Positions 14,242-40,738 of a stretch of DNA of 64,000 nt are shown here, piece after piece (position 1 is the first letter of the stretch; the number at the start of each line of letters is the position of its first letter). The notes under the pieces were generated by a model. That model ran no database searches. It was not told where the DNA came from and saw only the letters and a list, made by a program, of their open reading frames with translations. A program made the translations under genes and the position numbers. The stretch is from Amphiscolops sp. MND2022 (taxonomy: Eukaryota), in contig OZ076409.1 of NCBI GenBank assembly GCA_964187785.1, positions 74,340,001 through 74,404,000 of the forward strand. The letters run 5' to 3'.

Positions 14242-15507
14242 TGCCGGGATTTCTATTCGTTCAGGGAAGATGCGCGCTGTTGGGGAGGGTCCCGGGCGCG
14301 CTCAGGGGTTATGGTTTTCCAGCTTTGGAGAACAGGGTATCGCGAGTACGATCTCGGAAACTATCCGTCAGAATTGGCTGAAATTTTGCATGTGGCTCCC
14401 AATGGACATTGTAAGAACAAATCCCTACTGGCGTTTTGCTGGGAAAAATCAAAATGTTGGTCAAAAATGCGATTTTCCGACGAAATTTTTGATTTTTTTT
14501 TCTTTGACAGTCTATATCTCGCCCCAGGGTCACGCTAGCTACCCTAAACCCTGCTAAATATAATTTGCAATCTGTCTCAGGAATGCGGTGTGAAATTTTC
14601 AGGTCAATCGGACTTAAACTCAGCGACTTAGAGCGATTTTTTAGGTGCATTTTTTGACATTTTTTGCATTTGCTGATTTATCTCTGCCGTTTTTTGCCCA
14701 TATTTTTTTCTAGACCTCCTCCTAAAGACCTCCCCTGGCCGGTTTACATCCCAGGAAAACCATTTGGCCCTAAATACGAAGTTTCAGCGTTCTAGCATCT
14801 CCGGGCGAAAAGTTGTGGGACTTAGAAAAATATTTTTGAAAACGCAAAATGTGTAAACTCAACTTCAGGCCTCCCAAAGTCAAGGAACTTCCACACAACT
14901 AGTATTGCAAGTGAATGCATGTGGAAAGTACTCGAATTGACGAGGAAAATGCGCTATATAACGTCTCTGTAGCTTAAACTGACGTTGACTTGTGGTGTGT
15001 TGAATGTGGGCTTCCTGGGGGGTCTGAAAAGCAAAAATTAAAAATGAAAACTAAGTCTTATTGAAAACTCACCGGATTCCGTGCAATCGACCCCAGAGCG
15101 TGCTCAATTGTAAATTCCTAATCTATCAACACCATTCAAGGTCTTTTGACTAATGTTGAAAAAATTGATACCGTATTATTCATCCGAGAGCACGAAACAG
15201 TTGAGTACATTCCATCTCCCTTTCAGGGGAGATGAGAATGTACTCGCTAAAGTCCAGGTACTACAGCCCATATTTGTTTTATGCTGCGCTCTTTATACTA
15301 GTGTGTACACGTATTACTCTTTTAACTGATTTTTTTGTCTGCACTTTGAGTTTGACGTGACATATACTGAAAGTTTTTGTTCTTAGAACATACACATGAC
15401 TTACGTCAACGCCCCATCCTTGCATCAACGCCCACCGTCCGTGGGCATGCCGAGGCATGCCCTTCGACGACGTGCACCAAGATATACCTGGAGCGCGTTA
15501 GCCTAGG
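14242..15507 (+). mobile_element. Short unit, D-related (1266 bp)
   Basis: Junction-bounded; all shared motifs present. Confidence 0.78.
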
Positions 15508-16781
15508 TGCCGGTGTATTTTTACACAATGGGGGATGTTGCGCGTGTGGGGAGGGTCCCTGACGCGCTTCCGTGGTTTCGGGTCTTCTAACCTATGATAG
15601 CGTGACACCTGACTTCGATCTCGTAAACTAGCCGTACGATTTGGCTGAAATTTGGCACACGTACCCCCCTCGGCACGGTGAAGATGATTTCCTACTGACG
15701 TTTTTCCCGCTAAACATTTTTTGTTGACCAAAATAACGGTTTTTGGGGTAAAATTTTCAACTTTTTTTAAATTTCATCTTATATCTCGCCACGGGTACAC
15801 GCTAGCGCTTCCAAACCTTGCTGACGAAACCTTGCAAACTGTCTCAGGAATGCTGTGTGAAATTTTCAGCTCAATCGGACCTAAACTCGGGGAGATATAG
15901 CGTTTTTCCGGAGCGGGGGGGTTTCATTTTTCTAACGGTCCAGCTTATCTTTGCCATTTTTTCAAAAATGCACTCGCCTAAAGGCCTCCCCTGGCCGGTT
16001 TTATTCCCAACAAAACCATTTGGCCCTAAATACGGAGTTTCAGCGTTCCAGCATTCCCGGGCGAAAAGTTGTGGGACTTAGAAAAGTTCAAAAATTTTCA
16101 AAAAAATTTTTTTCCGTTATTTGGGCCCTCAAAGTGGGGGAAAAGACCCCCAACCAGTAAAGCAAGTGAATGCATGTGGAAAGCCCTTGTTTAGACGAGA
16201 AAAATGCCGTTTAGAACGTCTTTTTATCTTAACTTGACATTGACTTTTGTCGTTTTGAAGGTGACCGTTAGATACGGAAAATTGATGTTTTGAGTATTTA
16301 TCCCATCTGAAAGCCATTGAGATACAACATGTTTTGCTCAAAACGTGTTTCATTGCAGTTTCGCTGTCCATTATCACCCTTTGGTGTCTTTTCACGTAAT
16401 TTTCGTTTCTATAATAACAATTTTTTTGTGTATTTATTCATTTTTTTCTCATCAAATAACTTGAAACAGTTGAGTACATTCCATCTCCCTTCCCGGGGGA
16501 GATGAGAATGTACTCGCTAAAGGTCAGGAACAACGGTCTATATCTTCCACAACACAGAAGGGATTGCAAATGGTTTCAGTTTGTCGCAGAAAACTTCTTT
16601 TTGCCCTCTGTGACTCGACAAAATTAACGTTTCTTACTTACTTTGAAACTCAGCATACCACAACTCATCTCTAACGTCAGCGCCCCCCTACTTGCATCAA
16701 CGCCCACCGTCCGTGGGCATGCCGAGGCATGCCCTTCGACGACGTATACCAAGATATACCTGGAGCGCGGTAGCAGCTAGG
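15508..16781 (+). mobile_element. Short unit, subtype B (1274 bp)
   Basis: Relative of 9131 with a different terminal tail. Confidence 0.78.
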
Positions 16782-18098
16782 TGCCCGGATTTCTATTCAT
16801 TAAAGTATGTTGCGCGTGTGGGTAGGGCCCCTGGCGCGCTCTTGTGTCCCTGTTCTCATAACTGCAATTTCCGGCAGCATTCTGAGCGATTTTCTAAACT
16901 ATCCATACGATTCGGCTGAAATTTGGCATGTGAGTTCCTATAACAGTTCTAAGAAACATTTCCTACTGGCGTTTTGCCCGGAAAATTTTTTTTGTTGACT
17001 TATAACGGTTTTTTTGGCCAAAAAATGCAATTTTTTCAAAAAATTTTTTTTTTCGGAGCCCATATCTTTTTTCAGGGTGCCCGGAGCGGGACGCGTTAAA
17101 CTGATTATAAACTCTACGGTTCATGGGCTTTACGGAGAACCTAGGCTCGTTTCGATCGGACAAATAGTCTTGGAGATATAACGGCATTTTTTGGGAATTT
17201 TTTGGAAATTTTTCTAACGGTCCAGCTTATCTTTGCCATTTTTTCGAAAATGTACTTGCCTAAAGGCCTCCCCTGGCCGGTTTTAATCCCAGCAAAACCA
17301 TTTGGCCCTAAATACGGAGTTTCAGCGTTCCAGCATTCCCGGGCGAAAAGTTGTGGGACTTAGAAAAATTTCAAAATTTTTCAAAAAATTTTTTTTCCGT
17401 TTTCCGCCCTCCCCCCCGAGGGGAAAAGACCCCCCAACCAGTAATTTGAGTGAATTCATGTGGAAAGGCCATGTTTAGAGAAGAAAAATGCCGTTTAGAT
17501 CGTCTTTTTATTTTAACCTGTCGTTGACTTATGTTGTTTTGAAGGTGATGTTTGGATGTGTGAAGCATGTGAAAAGGTAATTTATTGTGTCTTTAGCTCT
17601 TCTAAAAGTCATTGAGATACACGGTGTGTGACTCAGAACGTGTTTAATTCTAATTTAGCAATGCATCAACACTTTTTTGTGTCTTTTGACTCTGTTTTAA
17701 AAAATTTTTCCGACTAAAATCAAAAATTATTTATAATTATTGACATTTTTTTCTGATCTCATGACTCGAAACAGTTGAGTACATTCCATCTCCCTTCACG
17801 GGGGAGATGAGAATGTACTCTTTAGAGACCAGGTACTACAGTACTTACCTTCCCCGAGCAACGTCCCATAAAAATTGCGTTTTGATCCAGATATTTTGAC
17901 ATAATTCTATCTTTGTAATTTGACTGGAAATGAAGAAAATGCCGCACGTGCTCTTTTATATCAAGTATCTTAACAACGCCATCTCTTTTACGTCAACGCC
18001 CCATAGTTCACATCAACGCCCACCGTCCGTGGGCATGCCGAGGCATGCCCTTCGACGACGTATACCAAGATATACTCCCCAGCGCGGTAGCCGCTAGG
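16782..18098 (+). mobile_element. Short unit, subtype E (1317 bp)
   Basis: Junction-bounded; close copy at 20678. Confidence 0.78.
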
Positions 18099-19387
18099 TG
18101 CCGGGATTTCTATTCGATAAAGTATGTTGCGCGTGTGGGTAGGGCCCCTGGCGCGCTCTTGGGTATGGTGTTCACCAGCTAGGAAATAGGGGTCGATTTT
18201 TCGGGATCTCCTAAACTAGCCACACGATTTGGCTGAAATTTGGCACACGTACTCCCCTCGGCATGGTGAAGATGATTCCCTACTAGCGTTTTGCTCGCAA
18301 AATTTTTTTTGTTGTCCAAAATAACGGTTTTTGGTGGAAAATTTTGAACTTTTTTTAAATTTCATCTTATATCTCGCCACGGGTTTACGCTAGCGCTTCA
18401 AAACTTTGCTAAAGAAAGCTTGCAAACTGTCTCAGGAATGCGGTGTGAAATTTTCAGCACAATCGGACTTAAACTCAAGGAGATATAGCGTTTTTCCGGA
18501 GCGGGGGGGTTTCATTTTTCTAACGGTCCAGCTTATCTTAGCCATTTTTTCGAAAATGTACTCGCCTAAAGACCTCCCCTGGCCGGTTTTATTCCCAGCA
18601 AAACCATTTGGCCCTAAATACGGAGTTTCAGCGTTCCAGCATTCCCGGGCGAAAAGTTGTGGGACTTAGAAAAATTCAAAAATTTTCAAAAATTTTTTTT
18701 CGGTTTTCCGCCCTCCCCCCCGAGGGAAAAAGACCCCCCAACCAGTAATTTGAGTGAATTCATGTGGAAAGGCCATGTTTAGAGGAGAAAAATCCCGTTT
18801 AAATCGTCTTTTTATCTTTATTCAACGTTGACTTATGACGTTTTGAAGGTGATGTTTGGAAGGTGTGAAGCACGTGAAAAGTAAACGTTATGAGTATTTA
18901 TCTGATCTGAAAGCCATTGAGATGCAATCTGTTTTGCTCAAAACGTAATTCATATCCGTTTGGTAGTCAATCAACACCCTTTGTTGTCATTTGACATCTT
19001 TTTTTTTGTTGATATAAGAAAAAATTTTGTGTATTTATTCATTTTTTTCTCATCAAATAACTTGAAACAGTTGAGTACATTCCATCCCCCCTTCACGGGG
19101 GAGATGAGAATGTACTCGCAAAAAGCCCCAAACTACGGCCCTTACCTTCCTGAGCTACGCAGTATAAAGATTGCATATTGGTTCCGACATTTTGATAGAG
19201 TTATATCTTGGTAATCTGTCTGGATATGCAGAAAAACCAGCACGTGCTTTTTTATACCAAGTTGCTCACAACGACATTTATTTTATATCAACGCCCCCAT
19301 ATTTATCAACGCCCCCCGTCCGTGGGCATGCCGAGGCATGCCCTTCGACGACGTATACCAAGATATGTTCGAGCGCGTTAGCCTAGG
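18099..19387 (+). mobile_element. Short unit, subtype B (1289 bp)
   Basis: Junction-bounded; relatives at 26539 and 33070. Confidence 0.78.
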
Positions 19388-20677
19388 TGCCGGTGTCTTT
19401 TTACACAATGGGGGAAGTTGCGCGGTTGGGGAGGGTCCCTGACGCGCTTCCGTGAGATCAGGTTTTTCAACTAGTGAAATCGACAATGAAAATTGAGATC
19501 TCGTAAACTAGCCATACGATTTGGCTGAAATTTGGCACACGTACCCCCCTCGGCACGGTGAAGATGATTTCCTACTGACGTTTTTCCCGCTAAACATTTT
19601 TTGTTGACCAAAATAACGGTTTTTGGGGTAAAATTTTCAACTTTTTTTAAATTTCATCTTATATCTCGCCACGGGTACACGCTAGCGCTTCCAAACCTTG
19701 CTGACGAAAGTTTGCAAACTGTCTCAGGAATGCTGTGTGAAAATTTCAGCTCAATCGGACTTAAACTCGAGGAGATATAGCGTTTTTCCGGAGCGGGGGG
19801 GTTTCATTTTTCTAACGGTCCAGCTTATCTTTGCCATTTTTTCGAAAATGCACTCGCCTAAAGGCCTCCCCTGGCCGGTTTTATTCCCAGCAAAACCATT
19901 TGGCCCTAAATACGGAGTTTCAGCGTTCCAGCATTCTCGGGCGAAAAGTTGTGGGACTTAGAAAATTTCAAAAATTTTCAAAAATTTTTTTTTCGTTATT
20001 TGGGCCCCCAAAGTGGGGGAAAAGACCCCCCAACCAGTAAATCAAGTGAATGCATGTGGAAAGGCCATGTTTAGAGGAGAAAAATGCCGTTTAGAACGTC
20101 TTTTTATCTTGGCTCAACGTTGACTTATGACGTTTTGAAGGTGATGTTTGGCGGTGTAAAGCAAGTGAATAGTAAACGTTATGAGTATTTATCTGATCTG
20201 AAAGCCATTGAGATGCAATATGATTGCTCAAAACGTAATTCATTGCAGTTTGGCAATCAATCAACACCCTTTGTTGTCGTTTGACATACTTTTTTGTTGT
20301 TAAAATAAAAAATTTTGTGTATTTATTCATTTTTTTCTCATCAAATAACTTGGAACAGTTGAGTACATTCCATCCCCCCCTTCCGGGGGAGATGAGAATG
20401 TACTCGCAAAAAGCACCGAACTACGGCCCTTACCTTCCCGAGCTACGCAGTATAAGGATTACATATTGGTTCCGACATTTTCATAGAGTTATATCTTGGT
20501 AATCTGTCTGGATATGCCGAAAAATCAGCACGTGCCTTTTAATACCAAGTTGCTCACAACGACAATTATTTTATATCAACGCCCCCATATTTATCAACGC
20601 CCCCCGTCCGTGGGCATGCCGAGGCATGCCCTTCGACGACCCGCACCAAAATATGCGTTAGCGCGGTAGCCGCTAGG
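19388..20677 (+). mobile_element. Short unit, subtype B (1290 bp)
   Basis: Near-identical copy at 53213-54502. Confidence 0.78.
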
Positions 20678-21992
20678 TGCCGGGATTTCTATTCGTTCGA
20701 GTATGTGGCGCGTGTGGGTAGGGCCCCGTGGCGCGCTCTTGTGTCCCTGTTCTCATAACTGCAATTTCCGGCAGCATTCTGAGCGATTTTCTAAACTATC
20801 CATACGATTCGGCTGAAATTTGGCATGTGAGTTCCTATGACAGTTCTAAGAAACATTTCCTACTGGCGTTTTGCCCGGAAAATTTTTTTTGTTGACTTAT
20901 AACGGTTTTTTTGGCCAAAAAATGCAATTTTTTCAAAAAATTTTTTTTTCGGAGCCCATATCTTTTTTCAGGGTGCCCGGAGCGGGACGCGTTAAACTGA
21001 TTATAAACTCTACGGTTCATGGGCTTTACGGAGAACCTAGGCTCGTTTCGATCGGACAAATAGTCTTGGAGATATAACGGCATTTTTTGGGAATTTTTTG
21101 GAAATTTTTCTAACGGTCCAGCTTATCTTTGCCATTTTTTCGAAAATGTACTCGCCTAAAGGCCTCCCCTGGCCGGTTTTAATCCCAGCAAAACCATTTG
21201 GCCCTAAATACGGAGTTTCAGCGTTCCAGCATTCCCGGGCGAAAAGTTGTGGGACTTAGAAAAATTTCAAAATTTTTCAAAATTTTTTTTCCGTTTTCCG
21301 CCCTCCCCCCCGAGGGGAAAAGACCCCCCAACCAGTAATTTGAGTGAATTCATGTGGAAAGGCCATGTTTAGAGAAGAAAAATGCCGTTTAGATCGTCTT
21401 TTTATTTTAACCTGTCGTTGACTTATGTTGTTTTGAAGGTGATGTTTGGATGTGTGAAGCATGTGAAAAGGTAATTTATTGTGTCTTTAGCTCTTCTAAA
21501 AGTCATTGAGATACACGGTGTGTGACTCAGAACGTGTTTAATTCTAATTTAGCAATGCATCAACACTTTTTTGTGTCTTTTGACTCTGTTTTAAAAAATT
21601 TTTCCGACTAAAATCAAAAATTATTTATAATTATTCACATTTTTTTTCTGATCTCATGACTCGAAACAGTTGAGTACATTCCATCTCCCTTCACGGGGGA
21701 GATGAGAATGTACTCTTTAGAGACCAGGTACTACAGTACTTACCTTCCCCGAGCAACGCCCCATAAAAATTGCGTTTTGATCCAGATATTTTGACATAAT
21801 TTTATCTTTGTAATTTGACTGGAAATGAAGAAAATGCCGCACGTGCTCTTTTATATCAAGTATCTTAACAACGCCATCTCTTTTACGTCAACGCCCCATA
21901 GTTCACATCAACGCCCACCGTCCGTGGGCATGCCGAGGCATGCCCTTCGACGACGTATACCAAGATATACCCCGAGCGCGGTAGCCGCTAGG
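20678..21992 (+). mobile_element. Short unit, subtype E (1315 bp)
   Basis: Copy of 16782 with a variant head. Confidence 0.78.
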
Positions 21993-23275
21993 TGGCCGTG
22001 TCTTTTCGACGTGCTTTTGCATTGAGGAGTGGGTAGGGCCCCGCGACGACCTAGAAGAATTGGATGCTCACCGAAACGTGCAGAATTCTACGAGATCTCA
22101 TAGTTTGAGCCATACGATTTTTCTGAAATTTGGCATGTGGCCTGGAATTGGTGAGTAGGTAAAACGTGTAGAAGGTAATTTTTCCCAAATTCCACTGTGA
22201 GAGGAGATATGGGCAAATAACGGACCCAAAAATGGGGAAAATGCACATTTTTCAAGTTTGTCAGCCAATATCTCTTTTCCAGGTGCCCGTAGCGTTCCGC
22301 ACGTGGACATCAATATTGCTCAGCGCTGTTGGAGGAGTGCGTGGACAAATTTTGGTTTAAATCGGACTTAAACTTGACGAGAAATTAACGGTTTTTTGGG
22401 CGTTTCCGGGGTAAATTTTTTAACGGTCCAGCTTATCTTTGCCATTTTTTCGAAAATGTACATGCCTAAAGGCCTCCCCCTGGCCGAATATACTCCCAGC
22501 AAACCCATTTGGCCCTAAATACGGAGTTTCAGCGTTCCAGCATTCCGGGGCGGAAAGTTGTGGGACTTGGAAAAATTTCAAAATTTTTTCAAAATTTTTT
22601 TTTCCCGTTTTCCGGGCCCCCAATGAAGGGGAACGACCCCCCAACCAGTATTTTGAGTGAATTCATGTGGAACGCCCATGTTTGGAGGAGAAAAATGCCG
22701 TTTAGCACATCTTTTTTATCTTAACTTGACATTGACTTATTTCGTTTTGAATGTGATGTTAGGATATATGAAGCATGTTAAAAGTTGAAGTTTTGAGTCT
22801 TTATCTCATCGGAAAACCATTGAGATACAAGCAGTTTTGCTAAAAACGATTTTCATTGTAGGTTAGCAGAGTATTAGTACACTTTGATGTCATTTGAGTA
22901 TATTTTTCTTCTATATAATAACTGTTTTTATGTATTTATTCCAATTTATCTCATCTTTTAACATCAAGCAGTTGAGTACATTTCATCTCCCTTTCGGGGG
23001 AGATGAGAATGTACTCGCTAAAAACCTAATGCTATGGCGCCAATGTTTGGATGGGAAGTTTTCTATGCTTTGAAAAAAGTTATTTTTAATTACTTGATTT
23101 TTTAAAACAATAATTAACATGAAGTACATTACTTGCTCCTACTACTACCACCATACATCTCTAACGTCAACGCCCCCTGCTTGCATCAACGCCCCATCGT
23201 CCGTGGGCATGCCGAGGCATGCCCTTCGACGACGTATGCCAAATGCCCAGTGCCACGCAGTCTTTTCCCGCTAGG
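21993..23275 (+). mobile_element. Short unit, subtype F1 (1283 bp)
   Basis: Head tggccgtgtcttttcgacg; copy at 62054. Confidence 0.78.
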
Positions 23276-24543
23276 TGGCCGTGTCTTTTCGACGTGCTTT
23301 TGCATTGAGGAGTGGGTAGGGCCCCGCGACGACCTAGAAGAATTGGATGCTCACCGAAACGTGCAGAATTCTACGAGATCTCATAGTTTGAGCCATACGA
23401 TTTTTCTGAAATTTGGCATGTGGCCTGGAATTGGTGAGTAGGTAAAACGTGTAGGAGGTGATTTTTCCCAAATTCCACTGTGAGACGAGATATGGGCAAA
23501 TAACGGTCCCAAAAATGGCAAAAATGCACTTTTTTCAAGTTTGTCAGCCCATATCTCGTTCCCAGGTGCCCGGAGCGGGACGCGTTAAGCTGATTATAAA
23601 CTCTAGGGTGTTGAGGCTGTACGGGGAAGTCAGGCCCGTTCCGATCGGACTTGTAGTCTTGGAGAAATAACGGTATTTTTGGGGAACCTTTTCTAACGGT
23701 CCAGCTTATCTTTGCCATTTTTTCGAAAATGTACTCGCCTAAAGGCCTTCCCCTGGCCAAATTTACTCCCAGCAAAACCATTTGGCCCTAAATACGGAGT
23801 TTCAGCGTTCCAGCATTCCCGGGCGAAAAGTTGTGGGACTTGGAAAATTTTCAAAAATTTTCAAAAAATTTTTTTTTCGTTTTCCGGGCCCCCAATGAAG
23901 GGGAAACGACCCCCAACCAGTATTTTGAGTGAATTCATGTGGAAAGCCCTTGTTTAGACGAGAAAAATACCGTTTAGAACATCTTTTTATCTTGACTCAA
24001 CGTTGACTTATGACGTTTTGAATGTGATGTAAGGATGTAGGAGGCATGTGATAAGTTGATGTTTTGAGTCTTTATCTCATATGAAAGCGGTTGAGATGCA
24101 AGCTGTCCTGCTCAAAACGTCTTTCGTTGTAATTTTCCAGTGCACCAATACCCTTTGGTGTCATATAAACATACTTTTCGTCGATATATTAACAATTTTA
24201 ATGTATTTATTCCAATTTTTATTATCTTATAACTCAAAACAGTTGAGTACATTTCATCTCCCTTTCGGGGGAGATGAGAATGTACTCGCTAAAGACCTAG
24301 CGCCATGACCAAAAGTTTGAAACCCACGTTTTTTATCTTCTTACAGACTTGTTTTTGTATTTTTTCGGAATTTTTTAAAAATTAATATACTTGAAATACA
24401 TTACTTGACTTTACTACTACAATCCACCTCCAACGTCAACGCCCCCCTGCTTGCATCAACGCCCACCGTCCGTGGGCATGCCGAGGCATGCCCTTCGACG
24501 ACGTATGCCAAATGCCCAGTGCCACGCAGTCATTATCGCTAGG
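23276..24543 (+). mobile_element. Short unit, subtype F2 (1268 bp)
   Basis: Same head as F1, different body; copy at 60786. Confidence 0.78.
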
Positions 24544-26538
24544 TGCGGGGGGGTAACCCCAACTTTTTTCTTGGAGGAATCGGGTAGGGTCCTGATTCCG
24601 AGCTTAGTGCCGCCAGCTATCGTTAAAAACCCATACCTTTTAAACCCGATCTCGGGAACTAACCACGCCCCTTCTTTAATTTTTTGGCCCCCACTCACTT
24701 TTTGAGAGTAGATCGCCCCCCACTGGGTTCCAAGTTGGGCAAAAATGGAGGTCATGGGTAACGGGGACCGTTAAGGGGTAACTCAGGGGGTAAAATTTAT
24801 TTTTTGCGTCATATCTTTTCCCCCCGTGGATTTAGCGCTTCCGGTCAGCAGACAAAACCTCATGTACGTGATAAGGGGCCTCCGTAGGTCCAAACAAAAT
24901 TTTTCTATCATGCACCGTTACGGACTTGCCCCCCCGGCCCAACCGTTATTTTGCCGGAAATTGCCTTTTTTGACAGGGAAGGAGTCGTCTGAGCACGGAG
25001 TCGTTTGGTAATGTTTTGTAGTGCATCTGGAGACGTGTTGGGGGACATGTAGTTTGCCGACCCCAGTTTACCCCTCGGACGGGAAATGACCGTTATGTGA
25101 GTTTTAAAAATGCCCCCCTTCAATTTTCCCCGCAATTTCCGGTGTGAAGGAGTGGGAGTAGGGTGTCGGGTGCCATATATCAAAAGTAGGTTTAGACAAG
25201 GACCAACCGGAAACATGTGGTTTCGGACCCCCTGACCCAACCCGTTAGCCGCTATTAGGGTGATCGCCTCCTTTTTTTGCTGTTAAAACCGGAAAACGGG
25301 CATTGAGGGGTAAATATCTCGTGAACGCGTGGAGCAATCGTGTCCATCACTACTACAAGGTTTCATACCCATGATACGGTGCCTTCAGGGGGGCAAACAG
25401 ATTACCGCTATCTATCACCGTTACCGACTTGGCCCCCCAGCCTAACCGCTATGTGACCGGAAATTGCACTTTTTGAGCCCAAAGGGTCGATCCTAGCCGG
25501 GCAACGTTAGGTAACTTATTGTAGTACTCATTGAGACGAGTTGGGGGATCTAGTTTCAGTCACCCCCCGTTACCCCTTGAGACCGGAAATGACCGTTATG
25601 TGAGTAGAATTGCAATTTTTATACCTTTTGAAGGGCATTTAGGTGCGGAAGGAATGGTAATAGGTGCTTGGACACTATATGATGTAATGGAGGTCGTGAG
25701 GAGAGCATTCGGAAGTAACCGTTACGTTGACCCCAAAGTCCCCCTGGTACCGTTAACAACCGGAAATGGCCAGATTTTGTGTTTGTGGGGTACAAATGTT
25801 TGGTATTTTATAGATAAAAGTACCTGGAAGGTGTTTTAAAGGCCTCCAGAAGCGAACATAGTCATGAAACTTTGTGGGGGGTAACGGTATATAGCACCGG
25901 AAGTCCAAACCGTTAGTTACTGAATAGGTTTTTTGGTTTCAAAATGTCTTTAGGCGTAGTTTTGTGGGTTGAATCGTCATAATATCAACTAATACGGACT
26001 TTTTTCGGAAATAAAATTTTTTCACATTAGTTTCAGGGACCTCCAATGTTTCAGTCAACATAACCGTTACATTTTGATAGCCTTTCAAGTTGGCCTGGTG
26101 TCAACTTGGAAGGGCTATCCTTCTAAAATCGTTAATCAAGAGTGTTTTTGGGTAGGTATATGTTGCATTAGTACCAATTAGAGCTTCATCAACAGTTTGC
26201 CAACGGCAAAAACGATGTCGTGATAATTCCGTTATAAGAATATTAATTAACAAATTGTTTCTAAAGTTGATTTTTTCCATTCGAAATGTGTCCTAATGCG
26301 ACCAAATTGAATAAAATAATAAATGGTATTGACTAAAACTAAATAACAATGAAAAAGAAGATCAACATTTTTATTAGGTCTCATTATGGAAGCTGAAACC
26401 TCACGTTTTAACTTGATTAACGTCAACGCCACATACTTTACATCAACGCCCACCGTCTGTGGGCATGCCGAGGCATGCCCTTCGACGACGTATACCAAAC
26501 AACCTCCATATCTACACCCAATTGCGGTAGCAGCTAGG
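24544..26538 (+). mobile_element. Long unit (1995 bp)
   Basis: Same junctions, head loop and right-end block as short units but a different interior; relative at 51218. Confidence 0.8.
26076..26119. other. Internal ~44-nt imperfect hairpin of long units (representative copy)
   Basis: GATAGCC-TTTC-AAGTTG-GCCTGGTGT-CAACTT-GGAAG-GGCTATC; present in all 8 long units. Confidence 0.9.
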
Positions 26539-27826
26539 TGCCGGGATTTCTATTCGTTCGAGTATGTGGCGCGTGTGGGTAGGGCCCCTGGCGCGCTCTT
26601 GGGTATGGTGTTCACCAGCTAGGAAATAGGGGTCGATTTTTCGGGATCTCCTAAACTAGCCACACGATTTGGCTGAAATTTGGCACACGTACCCCCCTCG
26701 GCACGGTGAAGATGATTTCCTACTGACGTTTTTCCCGCAAAATTTTTTTTGTTGTCCAAAATAACGGTTTTTGGGGTAAAATTTTGAATTTTTTTTAAAA
26801 TTTATCTTATATCTCGCCACCGGTTTACGCTAGCGCTTCAAAACCCTGCTAAAGAAAGCTTGCAAACTGTCTCAGGAATGCGGTGTGAAATTTTCAGCTC
26901 AATCGGACTTAAACTCGGGGAGATATAGCGTTTTTCCGGAGCGGGGGGGTTTCATTTTTCTAACGGTCCAGCTTATCTTTGCCATTTTTTCGAAAATGCA
27001 CTTGCCTAAAGGCCTCCCCTGGCCGGTTTTATTCCCAGCAAAACCATTTGGCCCTAAATACGGAGTTTCAGCGTTCCAGCATTCCCGGGCGAAAAGTTGT
27101 GGGACTTAGAAAAGTTCAAAAATTTTCAAAAAATTTTTTTTCCGTTTTCCGCCCTCCCCCCCTAGGGGAAAAGACCCCCCAACCAGTAATTTGAGTGAAT
27201 TCATGTGGAAAGGCCATGTTAAGAGGAGAAAAATGCCGTTTAGAACGTCTTTTTATCTTGGCTCAACGTTGACTTATGACGTTTTGAAGGTGATGTTTGG
27301 AAGGTGTGAAGCACGTGAAAAGTAAACGTTATGAGTATTTATCTGATCTGAAAGCCATTGAGATGCAACCTGTTTTGCTCAAAACGTAATTCATATCCGT
27401 TTGGTAGTCAATCAACACCCTTTGTTGTCATTTGACATCTTTTTTTGTTGATATAAGAAAAAATTTCGTGTATTTATTCATTTTTTTCTCATCAAATAAC
27501 TTGAAACAGTTGAGTACATTCCATCCCCCCTTCACGGGGGAGATGAGAATGTACTCGCAAAAAGCCCCGAACTACGGCCCTTACCTTCCTGAGCTACGCA
27601 GTATAAAGATTGCATATTGGTTCCGACATTTTGATAGAGTTATATCTTGGTAATCTGTCTGGGTATGCAGAAAAACCAGCACGTGCTTTTTTATAGCAAG
27701 TTGCTCACAACGACATTTATTTTATATCAACGCCCCCATATTTATCAACGCCCCCCGTCCGTGGGCATGCCGAGGCATGCCCTTCGACGACGTATACCAA
27801 GATATGTTCGAGCGCGTTAGCCTAGG
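26539..27826 (+). mobile_element. Short unit, subtype B (1288 bp)
   Basis: Junction-bounded; relative of 18099. Confidence 0.78.
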
Positions 27827-29818
27827 TGCGGGGGGGAAACCCCATCCCTTATCTTGGAGGATTCGGGTAGGGTCCTGAATCCGAGTTCAGTGCCGCCAGC
27901 TCTCAGTAGAAATCTGGGCATTTTTTTGCGATCTCGTGATCTAGCCATAGGATTTTAAAGTTGGAGCGGCCCCCACCAGATTTTCCAAAGTTATTCGCCC
28001 CCCACCGGGTTCCAGCGTGATTGAAATATTTTGACGGGGTACACGGGCGACCGTTAGGGGTCATTTTGGGGGTAAAATTTATATCCGGTCGCATAACTTT
28101 TTTCCTGTTGGTTTAAAACTTTGGGACCCTGCTAAAAGTTTCTTGACCGTGTTGCAGTGGCCCCGGAGGTCCAAACCAAATTTTTCTATCTTGAAGCTAT
28201 CTCCAAGTACCCCCCCGCCCAAACCGTTATTTTTCCGGAAATGCCGGTTTTTGACCCGGAAGGAGTCGTCTGAGCGCGGGATCGTTAGGTGATGTTTTGG
28301 GGACGGCCTCGAGACGAAGCGGGGGATATATAGTTTGCCGACCCCAGTTTTCCCCCCGCACGGGAAATGACCGTTATATGAGCGGGAAAAATGCCCCCCT
28401 CCACGTTTTACCGCTATTTCCGGTGTGAAGGAGTGGGAGTAGCGCGTCGGGTGTTATATAACAAAAGTAGGTTTAGACAAGGACCTATCGGAAACATGTA
28501 GTTTGGGACCCCCTGGACCAACCCGTTAGCGGGAAATGGGGCTTCCGCCTCCTTTTTTTACTGCTAAAACCGTAAAATGTGCATTGAGGGGTAAATATCT
28601 CGTGAACGCGTGGAGCAATCGTGTCCATCACTACTACAAGGTTTCATACCCATGATATGGTGCCTTCAGGGGGGCAAACAGATTTCCGCTATCTATCACC
28701 GTTACCGACTTGGCCCCCCAGCCTAACCGCTATGTGACCGGAAATGTCACTTTTTGAGCCCAAAGGGTCGGTCCCAGCCGGGGAACGTTAGGTAACTTAT
28801 TGTAGTACTCAATGAGACGAGTTGGGAGATATAGTTTCAGTCACCCCCCGTTACCCCTTGGGACCGGAAATGACCGTTATGTGGGTAAAATTGCAATTTT
28901 TATACTTTTTCAAGTGTATTTAGGTGCGGAAGGCGTGGTAATAGGTGCTTGGACACTATATGAGGTAAGGGAGGACGTGAGGCGAGCATTCGGAAATAAC
29001 CGTTATGTTGACCCTAAAGTCCCCCTGGTACCGGAAGTGACCCGTAATGGTCAAATTTCGTGTTTTTAGGGTACAAATGTTTGGTTTTTATGGATTAAAG
29101 TACATGGAAGGTGTTTCAAAGGCCTCCAGAAGTGAACATCGTCATGAAACCTTGTGGGGGGTAACGGTATATAGCACCGGAAGTCCAAACCGTTAGTCAC
29201 AGAATAGATTTTTTGGTTTCAAAATGTCTTTAGGCGTAGTTTTGTGGGTTGAATCGTCATAATATCAACTATTACGGTTATTTTTCGGAAATAAAATTTT
29301 TTCACATTAGTTTCAGGGACCTCCAATGCTTCAGTCAACATAACCGTTACTTTTTGATAGCCTTTCAAGTTGGCCTGGTGTCAACTTGGAAGGGCTATCC
29401 TTCTAAAATCGTTAATCAAGAGTGTTTTTGGGTAGGTATATGTTTCATTAGTACCAATTAGAGCTTCATCAACAGTTTGCCAACGGCAAAAACGATGTCG
29501 TGATAATTCCGTTATAAGAATATTAATTAACAAATTGTTTACAAAGTTGATTTTTTCCATTTAAAATCTGTCCTAATGCCACCAAATTGAATAAAATAAT
29601 AAATGGTATTGACTAAAACTAAATAACATTGAAAAAGAAGATCAACATTTTTATTAGGTCTCATTATGGAAGCTGAAACCTCACGTTTTAACTTGATTAA
29701 CGTCAACGCCACATACTTTACATCAACGCCCACCGTCTGTGGGCATGCCGAGGCATGCCCTTCGACGACGTATACCAAACAACCTCCATATCTACACCCG
29801 ATTGCGGTAGCGGCTAGG
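27827..29818 (+). mobile_element. Long unit (1992 bp)
   Basis: Junction-bounded; tail shared with the unit at 24544. Confidence 0.8.
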
Positions 29819-31789
29819 TGCGGGGGGGTAACCCCAACAAATATATTGGAGGATTCGGGTAGGGTCCTGAATCCGATTTTAACTCTAATAGCTATCGATA
29901 GGAAATCTTGCAAAAATTTCGGGATCTCGTGATCTAACCATAGGATTTTAAAGTTGGAGCGGCCCCCACCAGATTTTCCAAAATTGATCGCCCCCCACCG
30001 GGTTCCATACACCGGAAAATTTTTTTCTGGCCACACGGGCGACCGTTAGGGGGTCATTTTAGGGGTAAAATTCATATTGGGCCACATAACTTTTTTTCTG
30101 TTGATTTAAAACTTTGGAACCCTGCTAAAAGTTTCTTGACCGTGTTGCAGGGGCCCCGAAGGTCAAAACCAAATTTTTCTATCTTGAAGCTATCTCCAAG
30201 TACCCCCCCGCTCAAACCGTTATTTTTCCGGAAACGCAGGTTTTTGACCCGGAAGGAGTCGTCTGAGCGCGGGGTCGTTAGGTGATGTATTGGGGACGGC
30301 CTTGAGACGAAGTGGGGGACAAGTAGTTTGCCAACCTCAATTTACCCCCCGGACGGGAAATGACAGTTATATGAGCGTGAAAAATGCCCCCCTCCACGTT
30401 TTACCGCTATTTCCGGTGTGAAGGAGTGGGAGTAGCGCGTCGGGTGTTATATAACAAAAGTAGGTTTAGACAAGGACCTATCGGAAACATGTAGTTTGGG
30501 ACCCCCTGGACCAACCCGTTAGCGGGAAATGGGGCTTCCGCCTCCTTTTTTTAGTGCTAAAACCGTAAAATGGGCATTGAGGGGTAAATATCTCGTGAAC
30601 GCGTGGAGCAATCGTGTCCATCACTACTACAAGGTTTCATACCCATGATATGGTGCCTTCAGGGGGGCAAACAGATTTCCGCTATCTATCACCGTTACCG
30701 ACTTGGCCCCCCAGCCTAACCGCTATGTGACCGGAAATGTCACTTTTTGAGCCCAAAGGGTCGGTCCCAGCCGGGGAACGTTAGGTAACTTATTGTAGTA
30801 CTCAATGAGACGAGTTGGGGGATATAGTTTCAGTCACCCCCCGTTACCCCTTGGGACCGGAAATGACCGTTATGTGGGTAAAATTGCAATTTTTATACTT
30901 TTTCAAGTGTATTTAGGTGCGGAAGGAGTGGTAATAGGTGCTTGGACACTATATGAGGTAAGGGAGGACGTGAGGCGAGCATTCGGAAATAACCGTTATG
31001 TTGACCCTAAAGTCCCCCTGGTACCGTAAACGACTGGAAATGGTCAAATTTTGTGTCTATTGGGTACAAATGTTTTGTATTTTGTAGATAAAAGTATCTA
31101 TTAGGTGTTTCGACGGTCTACAGTAGTGAACATAGTCATGAAACCTTGTGGGGGGTAACGGTATATAGCACCGGAAGTCAAACCGTTGGAGACAGGATAG
31201 GTTTTTTGGTTTTAAATTGTCTTTCGGCGTAATTTTTTCGACTCTTGTGGAGTATTTTTAAAAATTAAAGTTTTTCCATATAGTTTCAGAGACTCCGAAA
31301 CCTCAACCAACATAACCGTTACCTTATGATAGCCTTTCAAGTTGGCCTGGTGTCAACTTGGAAGCGCTATCCTTCTGAAATCGTTAATCAAGAGTGTTTT
31401 TGGGTAGGTATATATTGCATTAGTACCAATTAGAGCTTCATCAACAGTGTATCAACGACAAAAACTATGCCGTCATGATTCCGTTATTAGAATCATAGTG
31501 AGCAAATTGTTGAAAAAAATGGTTTTTTCCATACAAAATGTGTCCTAAATGCCAGGAAACCTATTTACCTAACAAATGGTATTAATTGGAATGTTTGTAA
31601 CAGATTTATAAAAGTTCAAATTGAATATTACATTTCATTATGGAAGCTGAAACGTCATATTTTAGTTTAATTACCGTCAACGCCACACACTTTACATCAA
31701 CGCACACCGTCTGTGGGCATGCCGAGGCATGCCCTTCGACGACGTATGACAAATCCTTATCAAACGACGCCCGTACATCCCGGGCTAGG
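29819..31789 (+). mobile_element. Long unit (1971 bp)
   Basis: Near-identical copy at 40739-42709. Confidence 0.8.
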
Positions 31790-33069
31790 TGCCGGGATTT
31801 CTATTCGATAAAGTAAGTTGCGCGGTTGGGTAGGGCCCCGTGAGCGCGCCCGTGTCTGTGTTTTTTGAACCTGAATTTGCGGGTGCCAAAATAGACGATC
31901 TCCTAAACTATCCATACGATTTTGCTCAAATTTGGCATACGGGTTCCTGAGACAGATATAAGAACTAATTCCTACTGGCGTTTTGCCCGGAAAATTTTTT
32001 TTGTTGCGCAAACTTGAAATTTTTGACAAAAAAATGCGATTTTTTTTGAAAAATTTTTTTTGAGAGGCCATATCTTTTTTCAGGGAGCCCGGAGCGGGAC
32101 GCGTTAAACTGATTATAAACTCTACGGTTCACGGGCTGTACGGGGAACCTATTTTTGTTGGAATCCGACTTGTAGATTTTGAGATATATTATCAAATTTG
32201 GGTGTTTTTTCTCCAATTTTTCGAAAAACCTGGTTTATCTCTGCCGTTTTTTGCCCAGATTTTTTTCTAGACCCTCTCCTAAAGGCCTCCCCTGGCCGGA
32301 TTACGTCCCAGCAAAACCATTTGGCCCTAAATACGAAGTTTCAGCGTTCTAGCATTCTCGGGCGAAAAGTTGTGGGACTTAGAAAATTTTTTTTTAAAAC
32401 GCAAAATGTGTAAAGTCAACTTCAGGCCTCCCAAAGTCAAGGAACTTCCACACAACTAGGATTGCAAGTGGATGCATGTGGAAAGTGCTTGAATAGACGA
32501 GGAAAATGAGCTATTATAAAACTCTGTAGCTTAACCTGACGTTGACTTATGACAATTTTAGTGTGAGCTTGCTATGTGGGAAAAAATTTCAAAAATTGAA
32601 AATCGAAGCTAAGTCTCATCCAAAACTCATCGGAATACGTTCAATCCATTCCAAAGCGGTTTACTTCCAGCTTTAGACTGCAGCAACACTATTCAAGACC
32701 ATTGTACCCCTTTATATTAGTTTTGACATTGTATTATTCATCCGAGAGCACAAAGCAGTTGAGTACATTCCATCTCCCTTTCGGGGGAGATGAGAATGTA
32801 CTCGCTAAAGAACACGTACTACAGCCAATTTTTGTATTTATGCGAAGCCATTCTATGCTATTGCACATAACAACTATGCTATTGACTTAATTTTGCCTAC
32901 ACTTTGCTATGACATATGCTAAACGTTTGGTCCTTACAACAACATACACATGACTAACGTCAACACCACATACTGTTACCAACGCCCACCGTCCGTGGGC
33001 ATGCCGAGGCATGCCCTTCGACGACGTATGCCAAATACCTTCCAGCGACGCTCGCGCTTCCCGGCTAGG
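31790..33069 (+). mobile_element. Short unit, subtype A (1280 bp)
   Basis: Near-identical to 178-1457. Confidence 0.8.
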
Positions 33070-34180
33070 TGCCGGTATTTCTATTCGATAAAGTATGTGG
33101 CGCGTGTGGGTAGGGTCCCTGGCGCGCTCTTGGGTATGGTGTTCACCAGCTAGGAAATAGGGGTCGATTTTTCGGGATCTCCTAAACTAGCCACACGATT
33201 TGGCTGAAATTTGGCACACGTACTCCCCTCGGCATGGTGAAGATGATTTCCTACTGACGTTTTTCCCGCAAAATTTTTTTTGTTGTCCAAAATAACGGTT
33301 TTTGGGGTAAAATTTTGAATTTTTTTTAAATTTCATCTTATATCTCGCCACGGGTTTACGCTAGCGCTTCAAAACCCTGCTAAAGAAAGCTTGCAAACTG
33401 TCTCAGGAAGGCGGTGTGAAATTTTCAGCTCAATCGGACTTAAACTCAGGGAGATATAGCGTTTTTCCGGAGCGGGGGGGTTTCATTTTTCTAACGGTCC
33501 AGCTTATCTTAGCCATTTTTTTGAAAATTTACTCGCCTAAAGACCTCCCCTGGCCGGTTTTATTCCCAGCAAAACCATTTGGCCCTAAATACGGAGTTTC
33601 AGCGTTCCAGCATTCCCGGGCGAAAAGTTGTGGGACTTAGAAAATTTCAAAAATTTTCAAAAATTTTTTTTTCGGTTTTCCGCCCTCCCCCCCGAGGGGA
33701 AAAGACCCCCCAACCAGTAATTTGAGTGAATTCATGTGGAAAGGCCATGTTTAGAGGAGAAAAATCCCGTTTAAATCGTCTTTTTATCTTTATTCAACGT
33801 TGACTTATGACGTTTTGAAGGTGATGTTTGGAGGTGTAAAGCACGTGAAAAGTAAACGTTATGAGTATTTATCTGATCTGAAAGCCATTGAGATGCAACC
33901 TGTTTTGCTCAAAACGTAATTCATATCAGTTTGGCAATCAATCAACACCCTTTGTTGTCGTTTGACATCTTTTTTTGTTGTTATAATAAAAAATTTTGTG
34001 TATTTATTCATTTTTTTCTCATCAAATAACTTGAAACAGTTGAGTACATTCCATCCCCCCCTTCCGGGGGAGATGAGAATGTACTCGCAAAAAGCACCGA
34101 ACTACGGCCCTTACCTTCCCGAGCTACGCAGTATAAAGATTGCATATTGGTTCCGACATTTTCATAGAGTTAAATCTTGG
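33070..34180 (+). mobile_element. Left part (1111 bp) of an interrupted subtype B unit
   Basis: Stops at aatcttgg, where intact relatives continue taatctgt; the remainder is at 36718-36893. Confidence 0.85.
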
Positions 34181-35448
34181 TGCCGGGATTACTATTCGTT
34201 CGAGTATGTGGCGCGTGTGGGTAGGGCCCCTGGCGCGCTCTTTTATTTCGGGTACACCTACTCCAAATTCACGATGTGATTTCGACGATCTCGTAAACTA
34301 GCCACACGATTTGGCTGAAATTTGGCACACGTACCCCCCTCGGCACGGTGAAGATGATTCCCTACTGATGTTTTGCCCGCTAAACATTTTTTGTTGACCA
34401 AAATAACGGTTTTTGGGGGAAAATTTTGAACTTTTTTTAAATTTCGTCTTATATCTCGCCACGGGTTTACGCTAGCGCTTCAAAACCTTGCTAACGAAAG
34501 TTTGCAAACTGTCTCAGGAATGCGGTGTGAAAATTTCAGCCCAATCGGACTTAAACTCGAGGAGATATAGCGTTTTTCCGGAGTGGGGGGGTTTCATTTT
34601 TCTAACGGTCCAGCTTATCTTTGCCATTTTTTCGAAAATGCACTCGCCTAAAGGCCTCCCCTGGCCGGTTTTATTCCCAGCAAAACCATTTGGCCCTAAA
34701 TACGGAGTTTCAGCGTTCCAGCATTCCCGGGCGAAAAGTTGTGGGACTTAGAAAATTTCAAAATTTTTCAAAAAAATTTTTTCCGTTATTTGGGCCCCCA
34801 AAGTGGGGCAAAAGACCCCCCAACCAGTAAAGCAAGTGAATGCATGTGGAAAGCCCTTGTTTAGACGAGAAAATGGCGTTTAGAACGTTTTTTTATCGTA
34901 ACTTGACATTGACATTTGTCGTTTTGAAGGTGACCGTTAGATACGGAAAATTGATGTTTTGAGTGTTTATCCCATCTGAAAGCCATTGAGATACAACATG
35001 TTTTGCTCAAAACGTGTTTCATTGCAGTTTCGCTGTCCATTAACACCCTTTGGTGTCTTTTGACGTAATTTTTTTTTCTATAATAACAATTTCTTTGTGT
35101 ATTTATTCATTTTTTTCTCATCAAATAACTTGAAACAGTTGAGTACATTCCATCTCCCTTCCCGGGGGAGATGAGAATGTACTCGCTAAAGGTCAGGAAC
35201 TACGGTCTATATCTTCCACAACACAAAAGAGATTGCAAATTGTTTCAGTTTGTCGCAGAAAACTTCTTTTTGCACTCTGTGACTCGACAAAGTGAACGTT
35301 TCTTACTTACTTTGAATCTCACCATACCACAACTCATCTCTAACGTCAACGCCCCCCACACACATCAACGCCCCCCGTCCGTGGGCATGCCGAGGCATGC
35401 CCTTCGACGACGTATAGCAAAATATATTCGAACGCGGTAGCGGCTAGG
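34181..35448 (+). mobile_element. Nested short unit, copy 1 (1268 bp)
   Basis: Starts directly after CTTGG instead of CTAGG. Confidence 0.85.
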
Positions 35449-36717
35449 TGCCGGGATTACTATTCGTTCGAGTATGTGGCGCGTGTGGGTAGGGCCCCTG
35501 GCGCGCTCTTTTATTTCGGGTACACCTACTCCAAATTCACGATGTGATTTCGACGATCTCGTAAACTAGCCACACGATTTGGCTGAAATTTGGCACACGT
35601 ACCCCCCTCGGCACGGTGAAGATGATTCCCTACTGACGTTTTGCCCGCTAAACATTTTTTGTTGACCAAAATAACGGTTTTTGGGGGAAAATTTTGAACT
35701 TTTTTTAAATTTCGTCTTATATCTCGCCACGGGTTTACGCTAGCGCTTCAAAACCTTGCTAACGAAAGTTTGCAAACTGTCTCAGGAATGCGGTGTGAAA
35801 ATTTCAGCCCAATCGGACTTAAACTCGAGGAGATATAGCGTTTTTCCGGAGCGGGGGGGTTTCATTTTTCTAACGGTCCAGCTTATCTTTGCCATTTTTT
35901 CGAAAATGCACTCGCCTAAAGGCCTCCCCTGGCCGGTTTTATTCCCAGCAAAACCATTTGGCCCTAAATACGGAGTTTCAGCGTTCCAGCATTCCCGGGC
36001 GAAAAGTTGTGGGACTTAGAAAATTTCAAAAATTTTCAAAAAAATTTTTTCCGTTATTTGGGCCCCCAAAGTGGGGCAAAAGACCCCCCAACCAGTAAAG
36101 CAAGTGAATGCATGTGGAAAGCCCTTGTTTAGACGAGAAAAATGGCGTTTAGAACGTTTTTTTATCGTAACTTGACATTGACTTTTGTCGTTTTGAAGGT
36201 GACCGTTAGATACGGAAAATTGATGTTTTGAGTGTTTATCCCATCTGAAAGCCATTGAGATACAACATGTTTTGCTCAAAACGTGTTTCGTTGCAGTTTC
36301 GCTGTCCATTAACACCCTTTGGTGTCTTTTGACGTAATTTTTTTTTCTATAATAACAATTTCTTTGTGTATTTATTCATTTTTTTCTCATCAAATAACTT
36401 GAAACAGTTGAGTACATTCCATCTCCCTTCCCGGGGGAGATGAGAATGTACTCGCTAAAGGTCAGGAACTACGGTCTATATCTTCCACAACACAAAAGAG
36501 ATTGCAAATTGTTTCAATTTGTCGCAGAAAACTTCTTTTTGCACTCTGTGACTCGACAAAGTGAACGTTTCTTACTTACTTTGAATCTCACCATACCACA
36601 ACTCATCTCTAACGTCAACGCCCCCCACACACATCAACGCCCCCCGTCCGTGGGCATGCCGAGGCATGCCCTTCGACGACGTATAGCAAAATATATTCGA
36701 ATGCGGTAGCGGCTAGG
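35449..36717 (+). mobile_element. Nested short unit, copy 2 (1269 bp)
   Basis: Near-identical to 34181-35448; ends CTAGG followed by taatctgt of the host unit. Confidence 0.85.
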
Positions 36718-36893
36718 TAATCTGTTTGGGTATGCAGAAAAACCAGCACGTGCTTTTTTATACCAAGTTGCTTACAACGACAATTATTTTATATCAACGC
36801 CCCCATATTTATCAACGCCCCCCGTCCGTGGGCATGCCGAGGCATGCCCTTCGACGACGTATACCAAGATATGCGTTAACGCGTTAGCCTAGG
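36718..36893 (+). mobile_element. Right part (176 bp) of the interrupted unit starting at 33070
   Basis: 1111+176=1287 bp, matching intact relatives (1288-1289 bp). Confidence 0.85.
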
Positions 36894-39458: not shown

Positions 39459-40738
39459 TGCCGGGATTTCTATTCGATAAAGTAAGTTGCGCGGTTGGGT
39501 AGGGCCCCGTGAGCGCGCCCGTGTCTGTGTTTTTTGAACCTGAATTTGCGGGTGCCAAAATAGACGATCTCCTAAACTATCCATACGATTTGGCTCAAAT
39601 TTGGCATACGGGTTCCTGAGACAGATATAAGAACTAATTCCTACTGGCGTTTTGCCCGGAAAATTTTTTTTGTTGCGCAAACTTGAAATTTTTGACAAAA
39701 AAATGCGATTTTTTTTGAAAAATTTTTTTTGAGAGGCCATATCTTTTTTCAGGGTGCCCGGAGCGGGACGCGTTAAACTGATTATAAACTCTACGGTTCA
39801 TGGGCTGTACGGGGAACCTATTTTTGTTGGAATCCGACTTGTAGATTTTGAGATATATTATCAAATTTGGGTGTTTTTTTTCCAATTTTTCGAAAAACCT
39901 GGTTTATCTCTGCCGTTTTTTGCACAGATTTTTTTCTAGACCCTCTCCTAAAGGCCTCCCCTGGCCGGATTACGTCCCAGCAAAACCATTTGGCCCTAAA
40001 TACGAAGTTTCAGCGTTCTAGCATTCTCGGGCGAAAAGTTGTGGGACTTAGAAATTTTTTTTTTAAAACGCAAAATGTGTAAAGTCAACTTCAGGCCTCC
40101 CAAAGTCAAGGAACTTCCACACAACTAGTATTGCAAGTGGATGCATGTGGAAAGTGCTTGAATAGACGAGGAAAATGAGCTATTATAAAACTCTGTAGCT
40201 TAACCTGACGTTGACTTATGACAATTTTAGTGTGAGCTTGCTATGTGAGAAAAAATTTCAAAAATTGAAAATCGAAGCTAAGTCTCATCCAAAACTCATC
40301 GGAATACGTTCAATCCATTCCAAAGCGGTTTACTTCCAGCTATAGACTGCAGCAACACTATTCAAGACCATTGTACCCCTTTATATTAGTTTTGACATTG
40401 TATTATTCATCCGAGAGCACAAAGCAGTTGAGTACATTCCATCTCCCTTTCGGGGGAGATGAGAATGTACTCGCTAAAGAACAGGTACTACAGCCAATTT
40501 TTGTATTTATGCGAAGCCATTCTATGCTATTGCACATAACAACTATGCTATTGACTTAATTTTGCCTACACTTTGCTATGACATATGCTAAACGTTTGGT
40601 CCTTACAACAACATACACATGACTAACGTCAACACCACATACTGTTACCAACGCCCACCGTCCGTGGGCATGCCGAGGCATGCCCTTCGACGACGTATGC
40701 CAAATACCTTCCAGCGACGCTCGCGCTCCCCGGCTAGG
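39459..40738 (+). mobile_element. Short unit, subtype A (1280 bp)
   Basis: Near-identical to 178-1457. Confidence 0.8.

Follow-up and report, generated by a model that had tools for sequence, protein, structure and literature searches.

The hairpins that lie just inside the left ends of the repeat units in this DNA are real. We consider it fairly probable that a divergent Helitron-like rolling-circle lineage uses them as a conserved subterminal signal of its 5' ends, and that they likely fold on the single-stranded + strand, where the RepHel transposase would read the structure and nick ~42 nt upstream at CTNG|GT (the bar marks the element boundary). The window is the whole 64,000-nucleotide stretch that was analysed, from contig OZ076409.1 of Amphiscolops sp. 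MND2022. End hairpins are in themselves ordinary for HUH elements; the conserved loop, the 5' position, the self-junction target and the scale of the arrays are what is unusual here. How Helitron transposases recognise the end at which copying starts is poorly defined; here dozens of natural variants, and distant relatives as well, suggest a specific hairpin near the 5' end, with its loop and nick site, and testing it takes a short oligonucleotide and an intact transposase gene.

Hairpins and units of the array

The features of the window used in the analysis are the following, all on the + strand:

1..64000, +: mixed head-to-tail array with 47 junctions; units mostly ~1.27 or 2.0 kb
24474..24493, +: right-end palindrome of the preceding unit, ~50 nt before the unit end
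24539..24545, +: unit junction CTAG|GTG, which is the element boundary, an insertion target and the putative nick site
24543..26537, +: non-autonomous element bearing the hairpin, 1995 nt, without a long ORF
24549..24560, +: small proximal hairpin (element nt 7-18), found in many families but not all
24574..24601, +: main hairpin with flanking GA/GA dinucleotides (24574-24575 and 24600-24601), predicted to form a tandem G.A pair closing its base
24576..24599, +: main 5' subterminal hairpin, 9-bp stem including one G:T pair; 6-nt loop at 24585-24590
34180..36716, +: two near-identical units (1261/1268 nt) that entered another unit together, at a CTTG|GT site in its interior
44711..44790, +: insertion at CTTG in another unit's 5' end, just before the host unit's hairpin

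The hairpin motif, GGG-(T/G)AGGGN-CC(C/T), was searched as GGGKAGGGNCCY. It has 46 matches in the window, 46/46 on the + strand, and shuffles of the window give a mean of 0.12 matches (maximum 2). The motif lies downstream of 46 of the 47 CT(A/T)G|GTG unit junctions (45 CTAG|GTG, 2 CTTG|GTG); the single junction lacking it, at 44680, is broken up by the other insertion at 44711, and the remainder of that host was not located within the window. Six hairpins quoted in the initial annotation are all present at the coordinates it gave, and its fixed loop distance of 39-43 nt after CTAGG agrees with the 46 window copies, whose first loop base is element nt 41 (2 copies), 43 (30), 44 (6) or 45 (8). 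The conserved (T/G)AGGG loop that it had described at unit left ends also holds in a held-out sample of 20 other stretches, where the motif is present at 60/64 junctions picked via the upstream right end alone. In an earlier set of fetched stretches the motif is found at 211/223 candidate junctions; among the 12 misses are loop variants, a family that carries another hairpin, and sites that match a junction by chance.

The stem itself is variable. Just 3 bp are contiguous in 19/46 window copies, with pairing resuming past a bulge, and folding z-scores for single sequences are modest (mean -1.4 across 21 families). The hairpin at 24576..24599 has a dG of -6.6 on + and -4.5 on -, with z -2.67, and the type at 22029 (z +0.78) does not fold better than its shuffles. 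In G-rich types the loop register is ambiguous, and the 6-nt loop is open in the free fold of 8/21 families. For the proximal hairpin, raw energies, taken without shuffle comparison, show element nt 1-28 folding at -1.5 kcal/mol or better in 27/44 family representatives. One family of 2.2-kb units starting GTGGA (L033, L047, L069-L070, L036, L194) has no conserved loop and carries a long, different hairpin at an equal distance from the junction. It has 5 copies in the earlier fetched set and 2 more in the held-out sample; since the family persists, the loop is not strictly required.

The window lies in an array of ~6 Mb, at about 70.5-76.5 Mb of chromosome C1 of this genome (G000; L190-L209): 11/12 samples from 70.5-75.9 Mb have junctions, all on +, and 0/8 samples outside have them. 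Genome-wide there are at least 4197 junction-plus-hairpin matches, with smaller arrays on several chromosomes. Neighbouring units are usually unlike, with a median identity of 43% to the neighbour versus 97% to the best match elsewhere. Among 75 units from the window and its flanks, identical neighbours are not enriched (1 vs 2.8 expected) and repeated neighbour pairs, at 93% identity, are modestly enriched (8 vs 3.5, p=0.011), and thus some block duplication contributes to the array. No ORF longer than 168 aa is present anywhere in the 64-kb window. All 72 of the 72 non-autonomous units of the window region have a blastn match to autonomous-length units, some of which include a nested short unit.

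Further structures occur within the units. The right-end palindrome is common in non-autonomous units and is missing from several right-end types. Two short direct repeats (TCAACGCCC-like) lie just 5' of it, at 24435-24470 and in all palindrome-type right ends. Many 1.27-kb units have a long internal hairpin ~300 nt before the right end (22968-23018, 24233-24288, 27509-27558 and others).

Selection on the stem and the strand that folds

Covariation was assessed on 236 5' ends, reduced to 104 distinct hairpin regions and 44 family representatives. The two innermost G:C pairs give no evidence, because the search pattern fixes them. Among the 104 hairpins, stem pair 3 is G:C in 72, G:T in 31, A:C in 0 and something else in 1, and stem pair 4 is Watson-Crick in 62, G:T in 20 and unpaired in 22. 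When the conserved core is removed, the outer arms of the 44 representatives pair better with their own partner than with permuted ones (-7.76 versus -5.89 kcal/mol), and 0/20,000 permutations are as good; the same test with 19 representatives again gives 0/20,000. A downstream control window is null, at 5815/20,000 with 44 representatives and 996/20,000 with 19.

A pattern of this kind could in principle come from shared ancestry of GC-rich ends, with no selection on structure. The modest z-scores would suit such an origin, and arm permutations overstate significance because the families are related. A second test, meant to limit shared ancestry, therefore uses 26 non-overlapping pairs of sister relatives in which both arms differ: own arms pair better in 19, swapped arms in 4, and 3 are ties (p=0.0026). 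Together with the null control window and the retention of the hairpin in relatives at 25-29% protein identity, this result makes ancestry alone extremely unlikely, and selection on the stem structure, which the initial annotation had read from its covarying stems, is supported.

Along a spanning tree of the sequences, double changes give 22 Watson-Crick pairs, 6 G:T pairs and 18 broken pairs; single changes, placed with a rough pairwise alignment, are mostly breaking (102 broken and 10 A:C versus 27 kept). The initial annotation had proposed RNAalifold as a check. In the alignment, 96.7% of cells pair, a value (not the R-scape statistic) that exceeds all 500 shuffles and all slid controls. 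On the plain alignment RNAalifold recovers just a 4-bp inner stem with the 6-nt loop and nothing further, because the bulge length varies.

The + strand is favoured as the one that folds, which rests on the asymmetry of wobbles and of GA dinucleotides. Single wobbles between Watson-Crick pairs are G:T in 16 cases and A:C in 0 among the 44 representatives, bearing out the earlier suggestion that G:T pairs favour +; G:T is tolerated and A:C is not, hence the choice of strand. The stem base is GA/GA in 26/44 representatives and TC/TC in 4/44. Folding is more stable on + in 16/21 families and on - in 4/21, and energy-based covariation is nearly as strong on - as on +.

Which molecule folds is a separate matter. 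Selection could act on an RNA, for example a transcript starting near the element 5' end. G:U pairs and tandem G.A pairs are likewise characteristic of RNA, and + is the coding sense of the autonomous elements. The spacing to the DNA cut site is fixed, however, the hairpin is retained in non-coding units, and no Rfam match at E<=0.1 appears in the 8.1 kb of the window that was searched (21900-30000), so that we regard an RNA structure as quite improbable. From the enzyme class, we infer that the folding form is DNA.

The loop invites other readings. The initial annotation heard in its TAGG start an echo of the junction CTAGG. The data do not support a functional echo: in 33/104 distinct hairpins the loop opens with G instead of T, and that base does not track the terminal tetranucleotide of the element (CTAG ends have a G-loop in 35 and a T-loop in 63 cases, CTGG ends in 8 and 4). 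A related idea is that the loop acts as a guide, base-pairing with the junction tetranucleotide. Guide sequences of IS200/IS605 pair in this manner, and in the present elements the AG of the loop could pair with the CT found in every CTNG, and TAG with CTA. We consider a guide very unlikely, in that the base opening the loop agrees neither with the third position of the element's own end nor with that of the upstream site, and complementarity between the loop region and the right end is not above background. A G-quadruplex was considered as well; four G-runs are present in only 9/44 representatives, and a quadruplex is thus not general.

Element ends, insertion target and direction of copying

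Element boundaries are GTG...CT(A/G)G. The 3' end is CTAG in 173, CTGG in 15 and CTTG in 4 of 192 units, the units being defined by CT[ATG]G junctions. What fixes the boundary is that right ends lying in other DNA are followed by AT, TT or GT: outside arrays, the next bases are AT in 31, TT in 11 and others in 3 (45 right ends), and in a second set GT in 22 and GA in 1 (23 right ends). T is found at +2 in 64/68 of these flanks, and C at +1 in 0/45. On the left side, CT(A/G)G flanks 4197 5'-end matches. Left flanks ending in C, G or T and then G begin with CT in 100/100 cases among the matches listed, 100 of 392 (90 CTGG, 9 CTTG, 1 CTCG); T is second in 27 of 32 other left flanks, and the left flank of some full-length solo copies does not fit (2 clear cases). 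Boundaries thus read CTNG|G, and insertion goes into CTNG|DT without target duplication. At the joint insertion 34180-36716, for example, uninterrupted copies of the target site exist, and no duplication is seen. Terminal inverted repeats were sought in 127 end combinations, where the longest match is 4-7 nt, not above shuffled pairing.

Copies are also found outside arrays. A solo 1.24-kb unit (L011:7615 to L011:8850) has CTTG|GT on either side and sits between long ORFs that look retroelement-like by eye. Many dispersed right ends (L089-L128) have no 5' end within 7 kb, and some of these are pieces of 47, 63 or 108 nt at 99-100% identity, joined precisely at CTAG|DT. Among 20 dispersed 5' ends, 4 continue to a recognisable right end; most of the 20 are from families that the comparison library lacks.

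The hairpin would most likely be an origin mark that positions the nick on single-stranded DNA. After RepHel has nicked at the 5' end, the helicase would peel off the + strand; the second nick, made behind the terminal CT(A/G)G, would close a circle, and the circle would join a new CTNG|DT site, all by analogy with Helraiser and IS91. As insertion at CTNG|DT occurs without duplication, the elements' own junctions serve as targets. Each end-to-end junction recreates the preferred site; different families would for this reason go on entering each other's ends, always in one orientation, which would yield oriented, mixed arrays, with local duplication adding to their growth.

The available text on Helraiser and IS91 bears on this scheme from both sides. 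In Helraiser the plus strand is transposed, nicks fall at the left end and also at the junction of the two ends (PMC5876387), and the left end is needed (PMC4778049); the known Helraiser hairpin is a 3' terminator (PMC4778049), which counts against reading the present one as a 5' signal. In IS91, the target CTTG resembles the terIS end CTCG, and the origin end has subterminal palindromes; T is fixed at position 2 of the target, with CTCG, CTGG, CTGT and CTGA as minor targets (PMC13181058).

Polarity could also be reversed: copying would then begin on the - strand at the CTAG end, and the hairpin would serve as a stop signal, as does the canonical Helitron 3' hairpin. Right-end-only fragments are common and are not predicted by a 5'-first model; the short dispersed copies with a precise right end and no hairpin end speak for reversal, and IS91 transposes its bottom strand (PMC13181058, as far as its available text goes). 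Hairpins on the - strand, on the other hand, would have A:C mismatches in a third of cases and TC/TC at the base, the + fold is the more stable one in most families, and one copy (L212) has an intact 5' end with homology that stops after 195 nt. Reversed polarity is unlikely on this evidence, and an origin at the hairpin end is the reading that we retain.

Autonomous partners, relatives and known systems

A Pfam search of the genome places Helitron Rep matches inside the arrays. The autonomous units, 12-17 kb long, have the same GTG start and hairpin as the short units and an ORF in the same sense 1-3.5 kb downstream, and they sit in the arrays in the same orientation as the non-autonomous units. 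An open frame of 2350-2603 aa is present in 15/16 units longer than 9 kb; the PIF1-bearing proteins measure 2330-2590 aa, and L049 holds an intact RepHel frame of 2328 aa. The autonomous element nearest the window ends ~1.1 kb upstream of it, with its ORF 3.6 kb upstream. The array proteins combine an HUH-Y2 Rep, a PIF1 helicase and a C-terminal GIY-YIG domain, which supports the proposed link between the hairpin and an HUH transposase. Pfam scores are over the cut-off in 5/5 array proteins (Helitron_like_N 31-41 bits, PIF1 28-43 bits), the HUH and YxxxY columns are present in the protein alignment, and the GIY-YIG match is found at the C-terminus in 23/28 clade proteins scanned. DUF6570 is found in 0/28 clade proteins and in 4/4 HLE2 controls of the same genome. 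Pfam scans of the array proteins list no IS91 transposase family, and a search for the Replitron family PF21859 gives 0 matches in this genome and likewise 0 in control genomes.

In a tree of Rep and helicase sequences from 24 proteins, HLE1 (2) and HLE2 (4) stand opposite 18 GIY-type proteins with 100% ultrafast bootstrap; the tree is unrooted, its references are few and all from this genome, and its rows were hand-chosen among those with clear anchors. Intact-looking HLE1 and HLE2 Helitron ORFs are also present in the genome (L021-L028, L057-L062) and served as these references. Core identity of the GIY-type proteins is 19% to HLE1 and 19% to HLE2, and HLE1 and HLE2 share 24%. By this small tree, the transposase would fall outside both HLE1 and HLE2. 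A profile of the Rep domain finds 1486 clusters (at 50% identity) at E<=0.001 and 366 at E<=1e-30, and barely detects Helraiser (E 1.2).

A metagenome scan for relatives returns 35 loci, 13 of them with upstream DNA. In 4/13 upstream regions (three families: L154, L159 and L132/L134), CT(A/G/T)G|GT is followed by a stem with an NAGGGN loop on +, with 0 on - and 0.19 expected. The strict motif is matched at nt 55 in L154 and at nt 51 in L159, and L132/L134 were matched with a pattern loosened once they had been inspected. As two copies whose sequences part exactly at CTGG|GT and CTAG|GT, L132 and L134 fix the boundary independently. The distant relatives start GTA, and their proteins share 25-29% identity with those of the arrays. 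The other 9/13 upstream regions give no match, some perhaps being too short. In viral contigs no transposase relative was found; 26 matches to the hairpin pattern there, nearly all single and with stems of 3-6 bp, were taken as chance.

The elements belong to the Helitron superfamily, with an HUH-Y2 Rep fused to PIF1 and no target duplication, and their end logic is of the IS91 type; apart from a 3' CTRR, they differ from HLE1 and HLE2 in termini, target and domains. Definitions of HLE1 and HLE2 follow the available portions of PMC11417382, PMC3627910, PMC5148889 and PMC13286980. With HLE1, as described for Helraiser (PMC4778049, PMC5876387, in their available text), the elements share the HUH-Y2 Rep-PIF1 protein, a CTRR-like 3' end, the lack of duplication, non-autonomous derivatives and an end-to-end junction substrate. 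HLE1 has a 5' TC end, whereas array units start GTG; its hairpin lies 10-15 nt before the 3' end, whereas here the common right-end type has its palindrome ~45-70 nt from the end, and the conserved hairpin is 5'; it inserts between A and T rather than at CTNG|DT; and the C-terminal GIY-YIG is a feature of the array lineage.

HLE2 (Helitron2, Helentron, proto-Helentron and Fusarium FoHeli; PMC3627910, PMC11417382, PMC5148889, from their available text) also shares some features. Helitron2 has a 5' hairpin with compensatory changes, proto-Helentrons combine a 5' stem-loop with a 3' CTAG as the array elements do, and one HLE2 family has captured a GIY-YIG. HLE2 elements, however, have asymmetric terminal inverted repeats of 8-17 bp, carry DUF6570 and an AP endonuclease, and insert between T and T; none of these is seen in the array lineage, whose hairpin begins ~30 nt inside the end and has a conserved loop.

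Other systems share single traits. The third clade described from Paramecium (PMC13085455) is also outside HLE1/HLE2, with oriented, site-specific insertion into sequence matching its own last four bases; it has a CCAA end, a telomeric-repeat target and a 3' stem-loop, and the available text mentions no GIY-YIG. The array elements have neither that end nor that target. IS91 shares a target tetranucleotide like the terminal one, subterminal palindromes at the origin end and the lack of duplication, but is bacterial, with a small Y2 transposase of a different family and no helicase, and megabase mixed arrays are not reported in the available text of PMC13181058. Replitrons, as covered by the available text of PMC10288648, lack a helicase, which the array partner has. 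Helitron concatemers are described at plant centromeres (Xiong 2016, as cited by others), and head-to-tail copies as seen here occur in Helitron arrays of Xenopus (PMC12001565) and Hydractinia (PMC11934779). As far as the available parts of these sources go, the described arrays are one-family repeats (2-7 copies in Xenopus) or satellite-like derivatives, whereas here neighbours differ and intact autonomous elements are embedded.

The array elements are probably a little-described Helitron branch that inserts into its own ends. A literature search, with Repbase/Dfam, subscription papers and supplementary figures outside its scope, yielded no description of the lineage or of such arrays. HELIANO reports unclassified clusters, which may include the present lineage. 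A broader proposal seems to us evenly poised between belief and doubt: that this is an unnamed third Helitron lineage (Rep-PIF1-GIY-YIG) with an IS91-like origin, in which a CTNG|GT nick site and an NAGGGN-loop hairpin are kept down to ~25% transposase identity, and in which self-targeted junctions have built dozens of families into megabase, single-orientation mixed arrays, a self-made safe harbour and possibly a centromere-scale chromosome domain. Such a lineage would escape detectors that seek TC...CTRR or terminal inverted repeats. It would link the end logic of Helitrons with that of IS91, and a eukaryotic rolling-circle element with a CTNG|DT target and self-junction arrays would offer a route from transposon to satellite-scale array.

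Some autonomous units carry additional ORFs. An accessory ORF of 270-360 aa with four conserved cysteines lies downstream of RepHel (L046:2443-3498, L048, L038, L041). Its product has no sequence match in Pfam or PDB. In a confident structure model (pLDDT 85), RPA-type OB folds rank first, with CST and telomere proteins lower; the match to RPA-type OB domains has E 2e-5 and a TM of only ~0.2. By the model the protein may be RPA-like at the class level, which fits single-stranded intermediates. We take the G-rich loop to resemble a telomeric repeat, and it might accordingly be bound by an OB-fold protein, either this accessory one or a host telomere-type one, or be a double-strand protein site, and not be read by Rep at all. 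Look-alikes of the accessory protein in the atlas include POT1 and CTC1 clusters (score 0.92, with recognition below the reliable level). The ranking of RPA ahead of CST and telomere proteins speaks against such a binder, as do the frequency of RPA and Ssb-like genes as Helitron cargo (PMC11417382, available text) and the window's autonomous neighbour, where no extra ORF of this sort was seen; a double-strand site is made less likely by the variable bulges and the wobble pairs. We judge binding of this kind quite unlikely and keep to recognition by RepHel.

A second accessory ORF of ~200 aa (L046:694-1359, L048:3359-4015, L044:2371-3012) has no Pfam match. It contains what we take, by eye, to be a GDSL-like motif. 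Some members have an N-terminal OTU-like segment, seen as a Pfam match in P0030 and as a motif by eye in L053.
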